Below, piece after piece: positions 8,607-59,630 of a stretch of 64,000 nucleotides of DNA. This DNA comes from Escherichia phage kaaroe: sequence record MN850574.1. One strand, 5' to 3'. The translations under genes and the position numbers were made by a program. The notes under the pieces were generated by a model that was not told where the DNA came from, ran no database searches, and saw only the letters and a list, made by a program, of their open reading frames with translations. Positions within the stretch are counted from its first letter, which is position 1; each line of letters starts with the position of its first letter.

Positions 8607-8969
8607 ATGCTAGGTCATTCTAAAATAGAAGATTGCTCATTCAGAGCAATGAAAGATGATTTTTCGGTCCTGTACGCGTCTATCCGAGAGTTGTTTGTAG
8701 ATTTTAAGCAATTCAGAGAATACAAAGGCGTTAAGATGCGGGAGTGGGTATTCTGGCCTTTCTATATCATTACTCTGTTTTCTATGGTATTTTGTTTTGT
8801 CGGGATCACTATCGCTAGTTTTGTCACTTGCGTTTTCCTGATTATCAGGTGTATCATGTTTGCTTTGATTGCTGCCCCGTTTATTGTGTCAATCCTTCCG
8901 TTAAAATGGCTATTGGATTGGGCTGATAAATCTGATAAAGTAAAGAATGTGATTTGTAAGCGTGTATGA
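8607..8969 (+). CDS. predicted integral membrane protein (120 aa)
   Basis: Long hydrophobic stretches (WVFWPFYIITLFSMVF..., FALIAAPFIVSILPL). Confidence 0.5.
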   Translation: MLGHSKIEDCSFRAMKDDFSVLYASIRELFVDFKQFREYKGVKMREWVFWPFYIITLFSMVFCFVGITIASFVTCVFLIIRCIMFALIAAPFIVSILPLKWLLDWADKSDKVKNVICKRV

Positions 8970-8976
8970 GGTGAAG

Positions 8977-10323
8977 ATGAATAAATCAGTTACTTACCGC
9001 AGCCTTGAAAGCATTGTACATAATGAAGCTAAGGAATATGCGATCTATTCTGCCGAGGAACGCGGGATTCCTCAATTAGTGGATGGGCTTAAACCAGTGC
9101 AACGCTTTGTTATGGAGTGCGCACTTCAAAAGAGTAAAGGTGACCGTAAGAAATTCCGTAAGATGGCAGATATTGGATCTGGTGTTGCTGAGTTGGGGTA
9201 TCACCACGGCGAAACTAATGCCGTAGAAGCCGGATCACTCATGGCGAATACATGGAGCAATAATACTCCACTGCTTGACGGTCAAGGTAACTTCGGATCG
9301 CGTTTAGTCCAGAAAGCAGGTGCGGCACGTTATATCTTTGCTCGCGTGCATGAAAACTTCTTTAAAATCTATAAAGATATGAATTGCGCACCTAAGCACG
9401 AAGATCTGGAACACATCCCGCCAGCGTTCTACTTGCCAGTTGTGCCAATGGTATTGGCTAACGGTATTAGTGGTATTGCTACAGGGTATAAAACTGACAT
9501 TTTACCGCATTCACTGGAAAGCCTTATTGAATGCACAGAGCTAGCACTTGCCGGAAAACTGGATAAAGAACCTAGTGTTCAATTCCCGAAATTCACGGGT
9601 AAAGTTATCCCGCGAGATGATCGCGATGGTGTGATTCTTGAGGGTACATATGAACTAAACGGCAAGACTAAACTGACAATATCAGAAGTTCCTTATAAGT
9701 TCGACCGTGAAGAATATGTAGCGGTACTGGATGCACTGGAAGAAAAAGATCTGATTGTATCGTATAATGACCGTTGCTCTAAGGACGGATTCAGATTTGA
9801 AGTAACACTGAAACGCGATTATTTCAAAAGCGAAGATGAATCCGCTCGACATGAGCAAATCATGAAGGATTTTAAACTAACGCAGTTAGTAGCCCAGAAT
9901 ATCGTAGTAGTTAACGAACGTGGTTTAGTAGAAGTATTCGAGAAAGCGAGCGATCTGATCCGTCGATTCGTCGAAATCCGATTAGGGTATGTCGATAAAC
10001 GCATTGAATTGATGCAAGCGGAAACGCTGGAAGCATACAATTATGCAATGGCTAAAGCCGAATTTATCGATCGCGTAATTAAGGGCGAAATCGAGCTACA
10101 GGGCAAGAAAAAGGCCGAGGTAATGCAATCCATCAATGGACATGAAAAACTGCGTCCATACGCCGATAAGCTAGTTTCTATGCCATTGTATAGCGTTACT
10201 CAAGAAGAGTATGATCGACTGGTCAAAGATGCCGATAAACATCATAGTGAATATGAGTATTGGACAAAGACGACCGCAATGAAGGAATATAAGAAAGATC
10301 TTAAAGAACTTAAGAAGGGTTGA
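8977..10323 (+). CDS. 52: DNA topoisomerase II medium subunit (GyrA-like)
   Basis: ATG after GAGGTG SD; GLKPVQRFV and active-site AARY motifs; T4 gp52-like. Confidence 0.9.
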   Translation: MNKSVTYRSLESIVHNEAKEYAIYSAEERGIPQLVDGLKPVQRFVMECALQKSKGDRKKFRKMADIGSGVAELGYHHGETNAVEAGSLMANTWSNNTPLLDGQGNFGSRLVQKAGAARYIFARVHENFFKIYKDMNCAPKHEDLEHIPPAFYLPVVPMVLANGISGIATGYKTDILPHSLESLIECTELALAGKLDKEPSVQFPKFTGKVIPRDDRDGVILEGTYELNGKTKLTISEVPYKFDREEYVAVLDALEEKDLIVSYNDRCSKDGFRFEVTLKRDYFKSEDESARHEQIMKDFKLTQLVAQNIVVVNERGLVEVFEKASDLIRRFVEIRLGYVDKRIELMQAETLEAYNYAMAKAEFIDRVIKGEIELQGKKKAEVMQSINGHEKLRPYADKLVSMPLYSVTQEEYDRLVKDADKHHSEYEYWTKTTAMKEYKKDLKELKKG

Positions 10324-47270: not shown

Positions 47271-47283
47271 TTCAAAAAGTTGT

Positions 47284-47312
47284 TGACAGGGGATCGGTGA
47301 TCCCCTATACTA
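47284..47312 (+). promoter_or_regulatory. PeSL-like early promoter cassette
   Basis: TTGACA, GGGGATCGGTGATCCCC hairpin in spacer, TATACT; conserved leader. Confidence 0.6.
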
Positions 47313-47676: not shown

Positions 47677-47705
47677 TTGACAGGGGATCACCGATCCCCT
47701 ATACT
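47677..47705 (+). promoter_or_regulatory. PeSL-like early promoter cassette (hairpin in flipped orientation)
   Basis: TTGACA, GGGGATCACCGATCCCC, TATACT; conserved leader. Confidence 0.6.
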
Positions 47706-48802: not shown

Positions 48803-48831
48803 TTGACAGGGGATCGGTGATCCCCTATAAT
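48803..48831 (+). promoter_or_regulatory. PeSL-like early promoter cassette
   Basis: TTGACA, GGGGATCGGTGATCCCC, TATAAT; conserved leader. Confidence 0.6.
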
Positions 48832-51785: not shown

Positions 51786-52067
51786 ATGAAATTCATCAAA
51801 GCAACCGAAATCCTGAAAAACAAAGAAGCATACATCGGAAACATCGTTGGTATGAACATTCGCGGCGCTGGTAGCCAGTGGACCAAACTGGTTGATGTTA
51901 AAGCTAAAGGCGATAAAATTGAGTTCACTGTAAAAATGCTTACTCATAACGCACATATGGGTATCAAGACAAAAACGATGGCAGCAGATAAAAGCATTAA
52001 CTATCAGGGTCTGGGTGATTGGCTGAACTGGTGCAAAATGCACAATATCGAAACTAATCACGAATAA
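51786..52067 (+). CDS. hypothetical protein (93 aa)
   Basis: ORF track; GGAGAATCAAAA SD. Confidence 0.5.
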   Translation: MKFIKATEILKNKEAYIGNIVGMNIRGAGSQWTKLVDVKAKGDKIEFTVKMLTHNAHMGIKTKTMAADKSINYQGLGDWLNWCKMHNIETNHE

Positions 52068-53601: not shown

Positions 53602-53936
53602 TGAGATTGTTTAAGTATTCGCTAACGTCAAATTACGATAAACAAGGTCATTGCATCCGTTGCCCTGATTGTCATAGCCATAACATCGAAAGCAAGATCA
53701 CCGATCATATTGATGGACTTTGGTCGCCAGCAAGTGAAATAGAATACTATTGCGCTGATTGTGGAATTGTAGTAGCATATTGGGCATACGGATCATATGA
53801 TCCATACTTCCAGATGGGAGAACGTTCAATCCCTGCGCTTATCTGGAGAATTAAGAACAATATCCGCTATTCATGGGATGAGTTCTTAAAAGATATTGAT
53901 TTACGTGATGATCCATTCAGGAGAACTATATTATGA
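53598..53936 (+). CDS. zinc-finger protein (112 aa)
   Basis: CIRCPDCHSH ... CADCG cysteine clusters; start overlaps previous stop. Confidence 0.5.
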   Translation: MMRLFKYSLTSNYDKQGHCIRCPDCHSHNIESKITDHIDGLWSPASEIEYYCADCGIVVAYWAYGSYDPYFQMGERSIPALIWRIKNNIRYSWDEFLKDIDLRDDPFRRTIL

Positions 53937-54112
53937 TAACACCACAACTACACGGTAAAGAGATTTGCGATCTTACTTGGGAAGAGTTGGTCATGTATCG
54001 CGACACCTACAAATGGTTTGAATCCATGAAAGAATTTGTAGCAGCAGTACGAGAAGAAATGAGCATTCGCCAGTATGCGGACGCATATATTGAAAAGGTA
54101 AGCACACTATGA
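53933..54112 (+). CDS. hypothetical protein (59 aa)
   Basis: MITPQLHGKEICDLTWEELVMYRDTYKWF...; overlaps neighbours on both sides; below track cutoff. Confidence 0.45.
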   Translation: MITPQLHGKEICDLTWEELVMYRDTYKWFESMKEFVAAVREEMSIRQYADAYIEKVSTL

Positions 54113-54627
54113 ACCGTTTAACGCCTAAACGCCGTTACTATACCAATACTAAAAACTTTGTCATCTCTGTTTATGAGGCGTGGTTAGAAGATGGCTTTAT
54201 CAACATGAACCCAGATTATCAGCGTCCTTTGGTATGGGACACCGAAAACAAACGTATGTTTATCGAAAACCTGATTAATGATTTTCCGGTTGGTGCTATC
54301 GCAATGGCTAAGATTGATGATGGCTCTCGCTATGAGATCGAAATCGTGGACGGTAAACAGCGTTTAAACGCAATATTCTCCTTCATGAAGGATGAGTTTA
54401 GCATTGCTGGTAATGATGATTCTATGTTGTATTACAGTGATTTTACGCCAGCAGAAAAGCGACGTTTCCGAAATCTCGGACTACCCGCGATCATGATGGA
54501 AGAGAGCACACGAGAAGACCGATTAGAGTATTTCTACAAAACAAACTTTTTCGGTGTGCCTCAATCGGAAGAACATCGCCAGCATGTGATTGCCCTATTG
54601 CAAGATGAGCAATTAAAAAATAACTAA
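54109..54627 (+). CDS. DUF262-like (ParB/Srx-fold, GmrSD/DndB N-terminal-type) domain protein
   Basis: 172 aa; PDYQRPLVWD...FPVGAIAMA...YEIEIVDGKQRLNAIFSF (DGQQR-type motif). Confidence 0.55.
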   Translation: MNRLTPKRRYYTNTKNFVISVYEAWLEDGFINMNPDYQRPLVWDTENKRMFIENLINDFPVGAIAMAKIDDGSRYEIEIVDGKQRLNAIFSFMKDEFSIAGNDDSMLYYSDFTPAEKRRFRNLGLPAIMMEESTREDRLEYFYKTNFFGVPQSEEHRQHVIALLQDEQLKNN

Positions 54628-54635
54628 AAAAGTTG

Positions 54636-54664
54636 TTGACAGGGGATCATCGATCCCCTATAAT
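54636..54664 (+). promoter_or_regulatory. PeSL-like early promoter cassette
   Basis: TTGACA, GGGGATCATCGATCCCC, TATAAT; conserved leader. Confidence 0.6.
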
Positions 54665-54949: not shown

Positions 54950-55162
54950 ATGGCTAACATCGAAATCATCATTACCGACGTAACTTATGACCGCATTAAC
55001 GAAATCGGTACTGCATTACTGGAAGATGGAACAACTCGTACCATCAACTACGCAGAATACGTTGAAATGCGCGGTTGTATTAAACGAGTAGGAAAATATA
55101 TCCTGATTGAAAAAGACTATTCAGGATACACCTTAGAGCAATTGCTCGATGGTGCATTATAA
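54950..55162 (+). CDS. hypothetical protein (70 aa)
   Basis: ORF track; AAGGAGTATCAA SD. Confidence 0.5.
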   Translation: MANIEIIITDVTYDRINEIGTALLEDGTTRTINYAEYVEMRGCIKRVGKYILIEKDYSGYTLEQLLDGAL

Positions 55163-55167
55163 TAAAT

Positions 55168-55188
55168 GGGGGCGTTAAGCCCCTTTTT
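55168..55188 (+). terminator. intrinsic terminator
   Basis: GGGGGC-GTTAA-GCCCC followed by TTTTTC. Confidence 0.6.
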
Positions 55189-55229
55189 CATAAATATAGG
55201 TTTATAGGTTATCAACTAGAGGATATAAA

Positions 55230-57281
55230 ATGTTTAACTTAGAAATCGACGATCTAATGATTGAATCTTTCGAGAAATGGCTGTTGACGGAAGAGGAAGA
55301 AAACTTTGGCAGTATTGCTCCGGTACAGTGCTTAAAGCCTAAGCAGAATCCTAAACAGCTTTTTGCAGTACAGACACGCGATAAAGATGTGATTGTCCGT
55401 CTTTGTAACTTCACCAACAAAACACCTAAAATCATTCGTATGGGTGACAAGACCGCACATGTTGTACTGTGCGAAATGAACAAAAGCGGTCGTATTGTAC
55501 AGCTTAAAAATGGTCTAGGCGATAACCCGATTGCAGTTATGTCAAGTGCTTTTGATGTGGTTATGGAAACAGCCCGTAAAGCGCAATTAGACGCTGTTAT
55601 GTTCCGTTTTAACGTATCCCGCATGAAAGGTAAGACCGAACTGGTTAAGCGCGTTATAGAGCGTTTGGTGCGTCGTACACCGAAGTTTGAAGTATTCCAG
55701 CAGGAAGTAATGACCAGCAAAAAGATCGCTTTAGTTGTTGTCAAGCGTCGCGGGATGGCGATTGATAAGATTAAAGGTATTAAACTTGATGAATCCTTGT
55801 TCACTAAAGTAGAAAGTGATTTAGGTGATCGCTGGGTATCTAAGGCTACTGGTGAATCTCTGACTAAAGATGAGGCATATGCGGCTAGTCTTGTGTCAGA
55901 AGAAGAACGAAACGCGGAAGCAGAACAACGCGTAGCGGCTAAATCTCGTTTGACTAAAGAAGAAATGCTGAAAACTCAAGCGACATATAACAGCGACTAC
56001 GTGAATCATCCAGAAAAAATTAATCTTAAACCGGAAGAAGATATCACCGAAGCAGAACCTAAGAAACAGTTTAATACTCTGATTGACCGTCAAGCCTTAG
56101 AACGTTCAACCGCCCGTTCTCTGAATGACTGGACAAGTGATATTATCACTCGCTATGGTTTCATGCGTACTATTTTTGAAAGCGAAGCCGATGCAAAATA
56201 CGCAGTAAGCGAACTGGTAAAAGTTCAGGATCAATATGATCCATTGTCTGCGGAAGTTATCGCAGCCTCGGTCAAACGCTTAAAAGAAATCATGAGCGAG
56301 GAAGTATTCGAAAACAAGATCACCGCCCTGGCAATGGATCGAGTAGACCAGTCTATGCCAGCAGATGTAAAAGCTGAAATGCTGCGTAGTCATATCACCC
56401 AGATTAAAACAGATGCCCTACGTAATATTGCCTCCGGTATGTTTGAAGCAATTGCTAGCAACATGGGTGAAATGATGGCAGATATTGATCTTGATCTGCC
56501 GGGCGCGGAAGGTTTTGTGTTGAGCGAATATGCCGATGCAGCATACATCAATATGAACAACTTCCTAACCGACCGTAAGCTGGAAGAGTTTGAAGGCATC
56601 GCAGATCCAGAAGAATTGGTCAAGATGTGCGATGCACTGGATAATGCCTTCTCCAACTATGGCGTTAAACTTGATCCGGGTACTATTCTGTATCGTGGTA
56701 TGGACTTCCGGTCGCAAATGTGGGAAACTGCACGTAAGCAAAAAGCGTTTTACTTTAAAAACTATGTGAGCACTTCCCTTGCACCTAACATTTTTGGCGG
56801 CTGGAATGCAAACGTGGCTAGTGCCGTTGCTGGTGTTGATTCTATGGCTGGCTCTCGCGGTGAAGGTGGCGCTAATGTTGCTTTCTCCATTGCTGGCGCG
56901 GAAAACATCCCTGTATTGCCAGTAGGTAACAAAGCATTTGCTTACAAAGAATGCGAGATTTTACTTCCTCGCGGTGTTGTGTTATCCTTTGATACGGTAA
57001 CTCGTGCTACGGCATCGACGGATTCACAAGAAACTTATTACATCGAGGCACATATTATGAACAAAAATGAACTGGCAGCATTACAAGAATCTGGCGAGAT
57101 GATCGCGGACGGTGATGCATTCATCCGTGAAGGTGTTGTTAAACCGGCTTCTGACCTGTCTTTCTCCAGCTTCATTAGCGAAGCTAAAACCGAACGTAAG
57201 AAAGCAGATAAGGCAACTCTACGTCAGCTTATCGCTGATCTGGTATCTGTAGACGCAATGCCAGATAAATTTAAAATGTAA
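55230..57281 (+). CDS. alt: Alt-like ADP-ribosyltransferase (packaged RNA polymerase-modifying enzyme)
   Basis: 683 aa (T4 Alt is of similar length); C-terminal R-S-E triad (LYRG, YVSTSL, ECEILLPRG); between ligase and baseplate genes. Confidence 0.8.
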   Translation: MFNLEIDDLMIESFEKWLLTEEEENFGSIAPVQCLKPKQNPKQLFAVQTRDKDVIVRLCNFTNKTPKIIRMGDKTAHVVLCEMNKSGRIVQLKNGLGDNPIAVMSSAFDVVMETARKAQLDAVMFRFNVSRMKGKTELVKRVIERLVRRTPKFEVFQQEVMTSKKIALVVVKRRGMAIDKIKGIKLDESLFTKVESDLGDRWVSKATGESLTKDEAYAASLVSEEERNAEAEQRVAAKSRLTKEEMLKTQATYNSDYVNHPEKINLKPEEDITEAEPKKQFNTLIDRQALERSTARSLNDWTSDIITRYGFMRTIFESEADAKYAVSELVKVQDQYDPLSAEVIAASVKRLKEIMSEEVFENKITALAMDRVDQSMPADVKAEMLRSHITQIKTDALRNIASGMFEAIASNMGEMMADIDLDLPGAEGFVLSEYADAAYINMNNFLTDRKLEEFEGIADPEELVKMCDALDNAFSNYGVKLDPGTILYRGMDFRSQMWETARKQKAFYFKNYVSTSLAPNIFGGWNANVASAVAGVDSMAGSRGEGGANVAFSIAGAENIPVLPVGNKAFAYKECEILLPRGVVLSFDTVTRATASTDSQETYYIEAHIMNKNELAALQESGEMIADGDAFIREGVVKPASDLSFSSFISEAKTERKKADKATLRQLIADLVSVDAMPDKFKM

Positions 57282-57298
57282 TTTTTAAGAAATAATGG

Positions 57299-57327
57299 TT
57301 GACTCAAACGGGGACTAGTTTTATACT
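57299..57327 (+). promoter_or_regulatory. sigma70-type promoter with palindromic spacer
   Basis: TTGACT, CGGGGACTAGT...ACTAGCCCCG inverted repeat, TATACT. Confidence 0.5.
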
Positions 57328-57359
57328 AGCCCCGTTTTCTGTTATATGGGAGGTTTAAA

Positions 57360-58184
57360 ATGTTCAAGAAATTACAGGATTTTCGTCTTTCAGAAGAATC
57401 ACGCGAATCAATGATGGAACGTATGGATAATTACATCGAAACATATGACATTGAGGGGATTAATGGTTACATGATCACTGAGATGATCAGCGATCAGATT
57501 AACTTTGATGATTATGTGAAGGTTATCCGCTTCCTTGAGCGCGAGACACAAGATTATGGATTTGTAAAGAAAATCATTAATGTGATGTATGAAGTACACT
57601 CCGAAGACTTTGGAGATAATGTATTCAAACATTACAAACATAACAACATAACCCCAGCAGAATATAATGCAATCTGTGATTATGTGTCTGAACAATACGA
57701 ATGGGTAAATGGTGCTCTCTTAGGGGAAGAAGACATGACCGATGAGATATCAGAGATTGTTGATTTGATGGATTGTGTCATGGATAAAACCGAAAAGTTA
57801 AACGGTACTCTTTATCGAGGTCAACATCTTGACATTCAGACAATAGAGCGTATCATTGAAGATAAGGAGTTTACCTTTAAAAACTTTGTATCTACCAGCA
57901 TGACACCGATCATCTTTGGAGGATGGCTATCAAACAGCACTAGCCTTTATTGTGAGAATCGATATGAATCAATGACCGGAAAGATGCAACATTCTTGTAA
58001 TGTATCATGGGTAATTGACGTAAAAGATCATAAAGGTTTTGTTGTTGGGTCAATTGCATGGAACCCTTGCGAATGTGAAGTAATTTTACCGCGAGGGACT
58101 TGCGTCAAGGTAAACGACGTAGTAGAATCTTTCGGCGATGAGAATCGTAGACAATTTACAATTTTCGGTGAGGTGACTAAATGA
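57360..58184 (+). CDS. second ADP-ribosyltransferase (paralog of the Alt catalytic domain)
   Basis: 274 aa; LYRGQ, FKNFVSTSM, ECEVILPRG aligned with the Alt C-terminus. Confidence 0.7.
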   Translation: MFKKLQDFRLSEESRESMMERMDNYIETYDIEGINGYMITEMISDQINFDDYVKVIRFLERETQDYGFVKKIINVMYEVHSEDFGDNVFKHYKHNNITPAEYNAICDYVSEQYEWVNGALLGEEDMTDEISEIVDLMDCVMDKTEKLNGTLYRGQHLDIQTIERIIEDKEFTFKNFVSTSMTPIIFGGWLSNSTSLYCENRYESMTGKMQHSCNVSWVIDVKDHKGFVVGSIAWNPCECEVILPRGTCVKVNDVVESFGDENRRQFTIFGEVTK

Positions 58185-58666
58185 AAATGATTAAACTGAT
58201 TGGTCTTGCGGCTGCATTCATGCTTACTGGTTGTGCCAACATGGAAGCTATGATGAATGCTAAATCAGATCCGGTTTTCTTGCTTCGTGAATGTAAAGCA
58301 GCATATGCAAGTGATGATCAGATCGAATCATGCTTTATTTCTAAAATGGAACGTCGAGACGTAGATCGAGTTAAAGTTGGTTTAGCACCACAAACGCAGA
58401 TGTTCAAGGAGGCAATCAAAGAAGCGCGGGAAGAGAAAGCACAAGAAGAAAAGAAGCGTCAAGAAGAATTGCGCAAGCAGAAAGAAGAGTCTATACAACT
58501 TGAGAAGATGAAAGCGCGGGATCGCTGTATTATCATGTCTGACATGCAGATAGAGCAAGAAGCAAGAAAGGCAGCATTAAACGGTGATTATGACCGTTAT
58601 GAAGAACTTAACAGCGCAGAATTTCAAACTAAGGCACTAAAATATTGCAATGATTTAGCAAAATAA
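58181..58666 (+). CDS. lipoprotein (161 aa)
   Basis: Signal peptide with lipobox MLTGC; charged coiled-coil middle region; start overlaps previous stop. Confidence 0.6.
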   Translation: MKMIKLIGLAAAFMLTGCANMEAMMNAKSDPVFLLRECKAAYASDDQIESCFISKMERRDVDRVKVGLAPQTQMFKEAIKEAREEKAQEEKKRQEELRKQKEESIQLEKMKARDRCIIMSDMQIEQEARKAALNGDYDRYEELNSAEFQTKALKYCNDLAK

Positions 58667-58668
58667 AA

Positions 58669-58692
58669 AGGCGGGGATAATCCCCGCCTTTC
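58669..58692. terminator. bidirectional terminator between convergent genes
   Basis: GGCGGGGA-TAA-TCCCCGCC flanked by A-run upstream and T-run downstream. Confidence 0.65.
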
Positions 58693-58697
58693 GCTTA

Positions 58698-59630
58698 TCA
58701 GAACCAGTTAGTGACAGTATTCACCACACGCCCACCAACGCCATTTAGACGCGATAAAGCATTACCAGCAGCAGATAACCCACTATCAAGTAAATTATTG
58801 CCGAAAGTGTTTGTTATTGCGTTTATTGCCTTATCCTCAATCCATTCTCGCGCGGCTTGCTCTCCTACAGCACCAGTTTGCATAGTCCTATACGCAAAAG
58901 TAACATCGAATGTTGTAATTTCGTTGTTATTTTCATAGGTTAATTCCGGTGCACTCACACCAACAGGAACACAACCATTAAACATCATGATCGTGTGAGG
59001 AACTCCCATTCGGTTATGTAAGTTAACCTGAATATCTGCTTCAACGTCAACAGGAAGCGCACGAAGCCCTGTAACGGGGTCTTCTACTGAGTTAACCCAA
59101 TCCTGCATTGCTCTATAGTTTGATGCGCTAGAGTCCATTCTAAAGCTCAATACAAGCGGATCGAAATCACGTCCGGTAATTCGAATGTTTGGCGCATTGT
59201 GGTTACGGTCCATTTCATAATTCAATCTGTTTTCTGGAACCTTAACAGCATACACCAGAAGACCGCTTGTCTTATATGCCATATTGAACCAGTCAAGCGC
59301 ATATGTACCAACATCAAATTGCCCCAGAAGAGATTGAACTACGCGGGATGACATTGCACCTAAAAGATACTTTTTGACACCGGATGAATCAACAGCACGC
59401 CTAACACCCTGTACAGCAAGATTTGTTAATGCGTCAGTATAATCACCACGAGTAATCCCGAAATAGTCATTTAATGCATTTGGTATAATATCATATACCG
59501 CACCGCCCATACTTTCTAGGATCGCTTGTGTCTTATTACTTGGAGTGGTGGCAAATGCCACGCTGAATAAGTTAGATCGCTGAAAGTCAAGGTTAGCGGC
59601 TTGTTCGTTAAAATCATTTAAATCAAACAT
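58698..59630 (-). CDS. 54: baseplate tail tube initiator
   Basis: 310 aa; N-terminus MFDLNDFNEQAANLDFQRSNLFSVAFATTPS resembles T4 gp54. Confidence 0.85.
   Translation of the reverse strand: MFDLNDFNEQAANLDFQRSNLFSVAFATTPSNKTQAILESMGGAVYDIIPNALNDYFGITRGDYTDALTNLAVQGVRRAVDSSGVKKYLLGAMSSRVVQSLLGQFDVGTYALDWFNMAYKTSGLLVYAVKVPENRLNYEMDRNHNAPNIRITGRDFDPLVLSFRMDSSASNYRAMQDWVNSVEDPVTGLRALPVDVEADIQVNLHNRMGVPHTIMMFNGCVPVGVSAPELTYENNNEITTFDVTFAYRTMQTGAVGEQAAREWIEDKAINAITNTFGNNLLDSGLSAAGNALSRLNGVGGRVVNTVTNWF

Follow-up and report, generated by a model that had tools for sequence, protein, structure and literature searches.

In the window, that is, the whole 64,000-nt stretch of Escherichia phage kaaroe DNA (MN850574.1) analysed here, the alt gene is followed by a second, shorter gene for an ADP-ribosyltransferase, which we call ART2, and by a gene for a predicted lipoprotein. 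We consider it most likely, with a probability of about 0.65, that ART2 is an early-made, non-packaged, cytoplasmic arginine-specific mono-ADP-ribosyltransferase, and that alt is expressed late and is separated from the early ART2-lipoprotein pair by a promoter-early stem-loop (PeSL). By analogy with T4, alt would be transcribed from a late promoter, and its product would probably be packaged in the head, to be injected along with the DNA. The stem-loop of the PeSL should block late read-through from alt, and its strong sigma-70 promoter should start an early transcript carrying two translationally coupled genes. ART2 would act as a stand-alone Alt catalytic core, modifying host proteins with the use of NAD+ shortly after infection, and the 161-residue helical lipoprotein should be exported to the envelope. 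ART2 would in this way fill the temporal niche of T4 ModA and ModB, though descended from Alt and not from Mod. The genes and signals on which this reading is built are as follows.

55230-57281, plus strand: alt, full-length Alt-like ADP-ribosyltransferase of 683 aa (phrog_802, E 1.6e-179, full length; PF03496).
57299-57327, plus strand: predicted sigma-70-type early promoter of the PeSL, with -35 TTGACT (57299-57304), a 17-nt spacer and -10 TATACT (57322-57327); sequence scan.
57306-57337, plus strand: PeSL stem-loop AAACGGGG(A)CUAGU-UUUAU-ACUAGCCCCGUUU, then UUUCU, candidate terminator or attenuator of read-through from alt; inverted repeat and RNA fold.
57348-57353, plus strand: Shine-Dalgarno sequence GGGAGG of ART2, read from the sequence.
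57360-58184, plus strand: ART2, 274-aa paralogue of the Alt core, the same as RB49p183 or RB49ORF183c (PF03496, 59.3 bits; phrog_15144, full length).
58181-58666, plus strand: predicted lipoprotein of 161 aa with signal peptide and lipobox LTG-C18 (phrog_16112, unknown function; all-helical mature part).

ART2 as a paralogue of the Alt catalytic core

The 683-residue Alt and the 274-residue paralogue named in the original prediction, which was made from the letters of the window, were both confirmed as open reading frames (ORFs), and both match the Pfam family PF03496 (ADPrib_exo_Tox; cut-off 23.4 bits), the alt product at 37.3 bits (E 2.4e-9) and ART2 with an E value of 4.3e-16. The R-S-E triad that had been read in ART2 is retained in full: LYRGQ begins at residue 151 (R153), FVSTSM at 176 (S178-T179-S180) and ECEVILPRG at 238 (E238-C-E240), and R153, S178, T179, S180, E238 and E240 are invariant in an eight-member family alignment in which identity falls to 24%. 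The arginine and the ExE motif are also invariant when ART2 is aligned with T4 Alt, ModA, ModB and the RB49 Mod homologue, and the worry that such an alignment might reveal lost catalytic residues was not borne out. In the co-resident Alt the catalytic motif comprises R489, S514-T515-S516 and E574-x-E576. The ExE motif and membership of PF03496 fit the arginine-specific ADP-ribosyltransferases.

T4 Alt (gpAlt, NP_049811) is a head-packaged arginine-specific ADP-ribosyltransferase that modifies RNA polymerase. BLAST aligned the window Alt with it end to end at 26.8% identity over 695 columns (E 6e-61), and the 683-aa ORF has the length (~650-710 aa), the N-terminal Tevenvirinae_ADPRT region and the conserved C-terminal tail of a full-length Alt. 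ART2 covers part of this architecture. Its residues 8-268 align to positions 330-602 of the 674 positions in the phrog_802 Alt profile, and it consists of an N-terminal helical subdomain and the R-S-ExE catalytic domain, without the N-terminal ~330 aa and the C-terminal ~80 aa of Alt; the conserved tail ...DGD..ETG...PxKF, a feature of full-length Alts, is absent. The AlphaFold2 (AF2) model of ART2 (pLDDT 78.9, pTM 0.75; loop 187-210 of low confidence) has a helical N-terminal subdomain and a beta-rich core, and it matches Vis, C3bot2, iota Ia, CDTa and Tre1 with E values of 4e-10 to 2e-8 at probability 1.0. When solved structures were searched by sequence, ART2 gave marginal matches only (Tre1, E 0.066) and Alt gave no match.

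The original prediction had also raised the case that ART2 might be a ModA or ModB orthologue moved beside alt. ART2 is indeed short like the Mods (200-207 aa), carries R-S-ExE and has an early-type promoter, and the T4 mod genes are early (PMC10468400, which also covers the R-S-EXE motif of the T4 ADP-ribosyltransferases and the background on Alt packaging). However, blastp of ART2 against ModA and ModB gave nothing better than E 3.7, hence no similarity at E < 1, versus a match to T4 Alt of 31.5% identity over 181 aa (E 3.7e-23), and the Alt-specific blocks FxFKNFVSTSxxPxIFGxW and ExEVILPRG are present in ART2 and absent from the Mods. Moreover, a Mod-family gene still occupies its own locus. 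T4 has modA and modB beside srd, at 11.9-13.1 kb, and alt at 123.5-125.5 kb; in RB49, the Mod-family gene RB49p014 (8917-9420, just outside the window; 167 aa, LYRGV ... ERE) is directly beside srd. Blastp, tblastn and this position of RB49p014 exclude a relocated ModA or ModB, an idea that we regard as already refuted by sequence, and ART2 is a paralogue of Alt.

RB49p014 resembles ModB (E 1e-9) more than ModA (E 2e-5), so that the genus seems to lack a counterpart of ModA. With RB49p014, Alt and ART2, RB49 thus has as many ADP-ribosyltransferases as T4, namely three, but of a different composition: one Mod, Alt and a paralogue of the Alt core. Because these phages have one Mod-family gene only, and one closer to ModB, ART2 may convergently do a ModA-like job, completing the ADP-ribosylation of RNA polymerase at its alpha subunit, or it may have a new host target, with the lipoprotein perhaps acting at the envelope as a superinfection-exclusion or receptor-masking factor; we hold this more specific proposal to be possible but doubtful. 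Divergence towards another target, as originally suggested, is plausible.

The window belongs to a Krischvirus, an RB49-like T4-type coliphage. The 3.8-kb stretch at 55000-58800 is matched over its full length at 95-99.4% identity by 58 phage records, all of them RB49-like coliphages of the genus Krischvirus and including RB49, Phi1, JSE, GEC-3S and FL04. The window is 98.6-99.4% identical to RB49, Phi1 and FL04, and the whole of it maps in reverse orientation to RB49 coordinates 6724-1 and 164018-105673, with a nucleotide difference of ~1-2% in the alt region and cassette indels elsewhere. Alt is 99.4% identical to RB49 Alt, and ART2 is 100% identical to RB49p183 (NP_891754.1), which RefSeq annotates as 'ADP-ribosyltransferase' with the note 'similar to C-terminal part of T4 Alt protein'. 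The ART2 ORF is intact in 58/58 Krischvirus records, the protein being 100% identical in many, and selection on ART2 is strongly purifying: in a comparison with a relative at a synonymous divergence (dS) of 0.32, the ratio of nonsynonymous to synonymous divergence (dN/dS) is 0.033 for ART2 and 0.024 for alt.

These data bear on the proposal that ART2 is what remains of a duplicated alt, decaying and without a function of its own. T4 does carry such remnants at the same position, alt.-1 and alt.-2, which lie right after alt and represent its N-terminal part (56-62% identity to Alt residues 1-117), and a Tequatrovirus-like metagenomic contig (L011, 5183-7248) has a second alt directly after alt that is split into ORFs of 273 aa (N-terminal) and 415 aa (catalytic). 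However, the ORF intact in every record, the dN/dS of 0.033, the invariance of the catalytic residues down to 24% identity, the confident AF2 fold, and a promoter and strong Shine-Dalgarno sequence of its own, both kept in distant relatives, make decay very unlikely; dN/dS and motif conservation lead us to reject a pseudogene remnant.

The promoter and stem-loop between alt and ART2

The alt-ART2 intergenic region of 78 nt reads TAATTTTTAAGAAATAATGG-TTGACT-N17-TATACT, and a bulged 13-bp hairpin (57306-57337) overlaps the promoter, its stem, AAACGGGG(A)CTAGT / ACTAGCCCCGTTT, wrapping the -10 box before TCTGTT; the run TTTTCT comes after the hairpin. RNA folding of the region gave -20.9 kcal/mol (z = -2.4). 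The window has 13 occurrences of the promoter pattern TTGACW-N16-18-TATAMT, every one on the plus strand, where chance would give 0.24. The original prediction had placed ART2 behind its own palindromic promoter. A promoter and hairpin do lie at 57299-57337, and the correction to be made is that the element, by its sequence features, is a member of a published class, the PeSLs of RB49 and phi1, which number ~50 per genome (Arbiol et al. 2010). As in these cassettes (Arbiol et al. 2010; Comeau et al. 2014), an AT-rich upstream stretch is joined to consensus sigma-70 boxes (-35 and -10, 17 nt apart), and over the -10 box lies a polyG/polyC stem-loop, after which come a Shine-Dalgarno sequence and start codon; the intergenic location, directly 5' of the Shine-Dalgarno sequence and start, was found as well. 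The difference lies in the stem, AAACGGGGACTAGT, versus the commonest type in the window, GGGGATC...GATCCCC. Promoter and terminator activity has been demonstrated for other PeSLs (206/205 and 211/210; Arbiol et al. 2010).

The position of the element is conserved in distant relatives, the promoter being kept at the same site in five of them (L009, L014, L016, L017 and L019). The inner stem is CTAGT/ACTAG in the window versus CAGT/ACTG in L009, L014 and L016, a compensatory change that keeps the pairing, and the promoter boxes are unchanged. Between the window and L009, nucleotide identity is 84.7% in the intergenic region and ~65-67% in the flanking coding DNA. A transcript entering from alt carries the whole PeSL hairpin; one initiated at the promoter has only the 3' arm and should therefore not terminate. 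Reading of the intergenic sequence revealed no TAAATA late box upstream of ART2, only the sigma-70 promoter.

Apart from the alt-ART2 element, four near-identical PeSLs of the form TTGACAGGGGATCnnnGATCCCCTATAMT are present at 47283-47311, 47677-47705, 48803-48831 and 54636-54664 and make up a distinct repeat family. In addition, the ORFan192 cassette of RB49 is missing from the window phage; the junction (window 52063-52067, RB49 117428-117964) is at a PeSL-rich spot, and ORFan192 is a PeSL-flanked ORF shown to form mini-circles (Arbiol et al. 2010).

Two further signals lie upstream of alt.

55168-55184, plus strand: GC-rich hairpin and T-run resembling an intrinsic terminator, 5' of alt; terminator scan, GGGGGCGTTAAGCCCCT then TTTTT.
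55189-55196, plus strand: late-promoter-like box CATAAATA, of putative function, 33 nt 5' of the alt start codon; read from the sequence.

The hairpin should stop early transcripts arriving from upstream, and a terminator upstream of alt is conserved in 5/6 genomes (Nolan et al. 2006, PMC1524935). T4 and L009 have the same order of hairpin and late promoter before alt as the window, and their equivalent boxes read TATAAATA and AATAAATA, respectively; annotated RB49 late promoters read TGTAAATA or TCTAAATA.

A different account would make ART2 a second virion-packaged ADP-ribosyltransferase, injected and acting with Alt at infection. It is encoded at the alt locus, next to structural genes, its N-terminus MFKKLQDFRLSE has an L-x-E (residues 10-12) resembling sites at which the T4 prohead protease cleaves, and tandem full-length alt copies elsewhere (44RR ORF187c) are presumably packaged. 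However, ART2 is missing the whole Alt N-terminal region as well as the conserved C-terminal tail, it has no late-promoter box upstream and the hairpin should block late read-through. Its N-terminal residues vary among relatives, and the N-terminus with L-x-E is not conserved in L009 or L016. We consider packaging of ART2 unlikely.

Several points nevertheless count against an early, non-packaged ART2 separated from a late alt. Besides the L-x-E, early-made proteins could in principle still be packaged. The late box CATAAATA of alt deviates from the T4 consensus, and a simple terminator scan did not call the bulged alt-ART2 hairpin. Finally, a literature search on expression, virion proteomics and enzymology of Krischvirus ART2 found nothing relevant.

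The downstream lipoprotein gene

The translationally coupled lipoprotein with an LTGC lipobox, also claimed originally, held up: the ART2 stop codon and the start codon of the ORF at 58181-58666 overlap as ATGA (58181-58184), with a GAGG Shine-Dalgarno sequence upstream. The N-terminus, MKMIKLIGLAAAFMLTG-C, fits the lipobox pattern. Read by eye, MKMIKLIGLAAAFM-LTG-C18 comprises a positively charged N-region, a hydrophobic core and a lipobox of the form [LVI][ASTVI][GAS]C, which is LFGC in L016. Residues 1-19 are identical in 8/8 aligned homologues, including four at ~30% identity, and the annotation of phage W115 calls the downstream gene 'putative lipoprotein'. Four cysteines of the mature part (C38, C51, C116 and C156) are invariant in the homologue alignment, which suits a periplasmic protein. 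The AF2 model (pLDDT 86) is all-helical with a long central helix and has no fold match in the PDB; the sequence has no Pfam or NCBIfam match and only a weak, non-significant match in PADLOC (E 0.0046, 14.5 bits). With the same relative as above, dN/dS is 0.097.

Phage Whisky and the window share 98.5% DNA identity up to 58236, just past the codon of the lipobox cysteine. From there on, the mature domain shows no similarity in nucleotides (32% aa identity), and nucleotide identity in gp54/gp48 is only 77%. The lipoprotein exchanges its mature domain as a cassette (window 58181-58666, breakpoint 58236; L019 4001-4510). Such cassette-like exchange hints, speculatively, that the protein acts at the envelope in interactions of the phage with its host or with other phages.

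This exchange cuts both ways for the proposal that ART2 and the lipoprotein are one functional unit, such as an envelope superinfection-exclusion or anti-defence pair. A swap right after the lipobox is a pattern typical of host- or phage-interaction proteins, and the stop/start overlap and gene order are kept in every relative examined. However, the Whisky lipoprotein is swapped while its ART2 is 99.6% identical, which speaks against the two being tightly co-adapted; a signal peptide is absent from ART2 and export is predicted for the lipoprotein, which would place the two proteins in different compartments; and the lipoprotein has no family or fold match. A joint function is in our view improbable, and we prefer a cytoplasmic ART2 that shares an early transcript with an exported lipoprotein.

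A further hairpin follows the lipoprotein gene, and beyond it gp54 and then gp48 lie on the minus strand.

58666-58692, no strand assigned: GC-rich hairpin (12-bp stem GAAAGGCGGGGATTATCCCCGCCTTTT) resembling a bidirectional terminator, in the gap between the lipoprotein gene and the convergent gp54 gene; terminator scan.

Age of the paralogue and comparison with known systems

The bit scores and tree place the duplication far back. The BLAST score of ART2 is 66.6 bits with the co-resident Alt and 87.8 bits with T4 Alt. In a neighbour-joining (NJ) tree of catalytic domains, the seven short sequences group in a single clade that lies outside the full-length Alts, a deep placement that is only indicative, and the co-resident Alts form their own clade; between the window and L009 the two proteins have diverged in parallel (ART2 0.80, Alt 0.89). 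Exhaustive profile searching turned up no more than about four clusters of short proteins at the 50% identity level, after which the score falls from 202 bits to <= ~80 bits for Alts of 600-712 aa. Bands of 60-90% identity in a first tblastn were absent when it was repeated at a stricter E-value. The alt-PeSL-ART2-lipoprotein module is found in all 58 Krischvirus records matched, to which ART2 orthologues are confined among isolated phages, and metagenomic relatives whose ART2 is 44-48% identical keep the order alt, PeSL, ART2, small protein or lipoprotein, gp54, gp48. A recent tandem duplication of the neighbouring alt is rejected on the bit scores, by which ART2 is no closer to its neighbour than to T4 Alt, and on the separate NJ clade. 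Of the duplication beside alt that had been put forward, the Alt-derived paralogue therefore stands; on the evidence of bit scores, tree and co-inheritance in the 44-48% relatives, however, the event is old and not recent.

The original prediction further set this locus against T4, where the Mods are encoded elsewhere. They are, at srd, but the contrast was overstated, because T4 itself has alt.-1/alt.-2 and other phages have full or split second copies downstream of alt. The split alt of the Tequatrovirus-like contig seems to stand midway between a complete duplicate and the remnants in T4, and BFVD lists 'split' Alt proteins in Acinetobacter phages; with the T4 remnants, these make tandem alt copies a recurrent theme. 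Indeed, RB49ORF183c, 44RRORF188c and T4 alt.-1/alt.-2 were described as apparent paralogous duplications of the adjacent alt, and 44RRORF187c as a full-length alt duplicate (Nolan et al. 2006, PMC1524935). ART2 has thus been in databases and the literature since 2003-2006; being annotated in RefSeq, having a PHROG family of its own and having been named an alt paralogue in 2006, it carries little weight as a discovery.

Its residual value is that of a natural experiment, in which one catalytic core exists in two forms within one phage: long, late and presumably injected (Alt) versus short, early and presumably made in the cell (ART2). The insulation between the two is a promoter/terminator cassette whose position was kept while the proteins diverged to ~45% identity. 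The targets of ART2 would reveal how T4-type phages repartition host ADP-ribosylation among paralogues.

Two other differences and neighbours were noted upstream of alt. A 172-nt segment with a 59-aa ORF (segment 53937-54108, ORF 53933-54112) lies between the homologues of RB49p188 and RB49p187 and has no RB49 counterpart. Next to it, at 54109-54627, a 172-aa protein consists of the GmrSD_N (DUF262) domain alone (PF03235, E 5e-20), without the C-terminal nuclease half, and is kept upstream of alt in L017 and L019.

Among known systems, RB49p183/RB49ORF183c (PHROG 15144) is the identical protein with the same neighbours (alt upstream, RB49p182 and gp54 downstream) and no difference at the protein level. 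T4 Alt shares with ART2 the homologous core, with R, STS, ExE and the flanking blocks, and the same locus, between the ligase-side region and gp54. It differs in length (682 aa versus 274), in clade, and in having a late promoter, where a sigma-70 PeSL promoter precedes ART2. T4 alt.-1/alt.-2, 44RR ORF187c/188c and the split Alts of Acinetobacter phages resemble ART2 as products of alt duplication directly downstream of alt. Unlike ART2, which keeps the catalytic core under purifying selection, alt.-1/alt.-2 copy the first ~117 aa and have no catalytic domain. T4 ModA and ModB are likewise small, R-S-ExE-bearing and early-expressed, which makes a similar timing and mode of action likely for ART2, but they have no detectable sequence similarity to it and lie next to srd rather than between alt and gp54. 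Finally, the C3-like, Vis, iota/CDTa and Tre1 toxins (ARTC clade, PF03496) share the fold and the R-S-ExE active-site layout, whereas they are only 13-20% identical to ART2 and are secreted bacterial toxins or effectors rather than, as ART2 probably is, early phage proteins.

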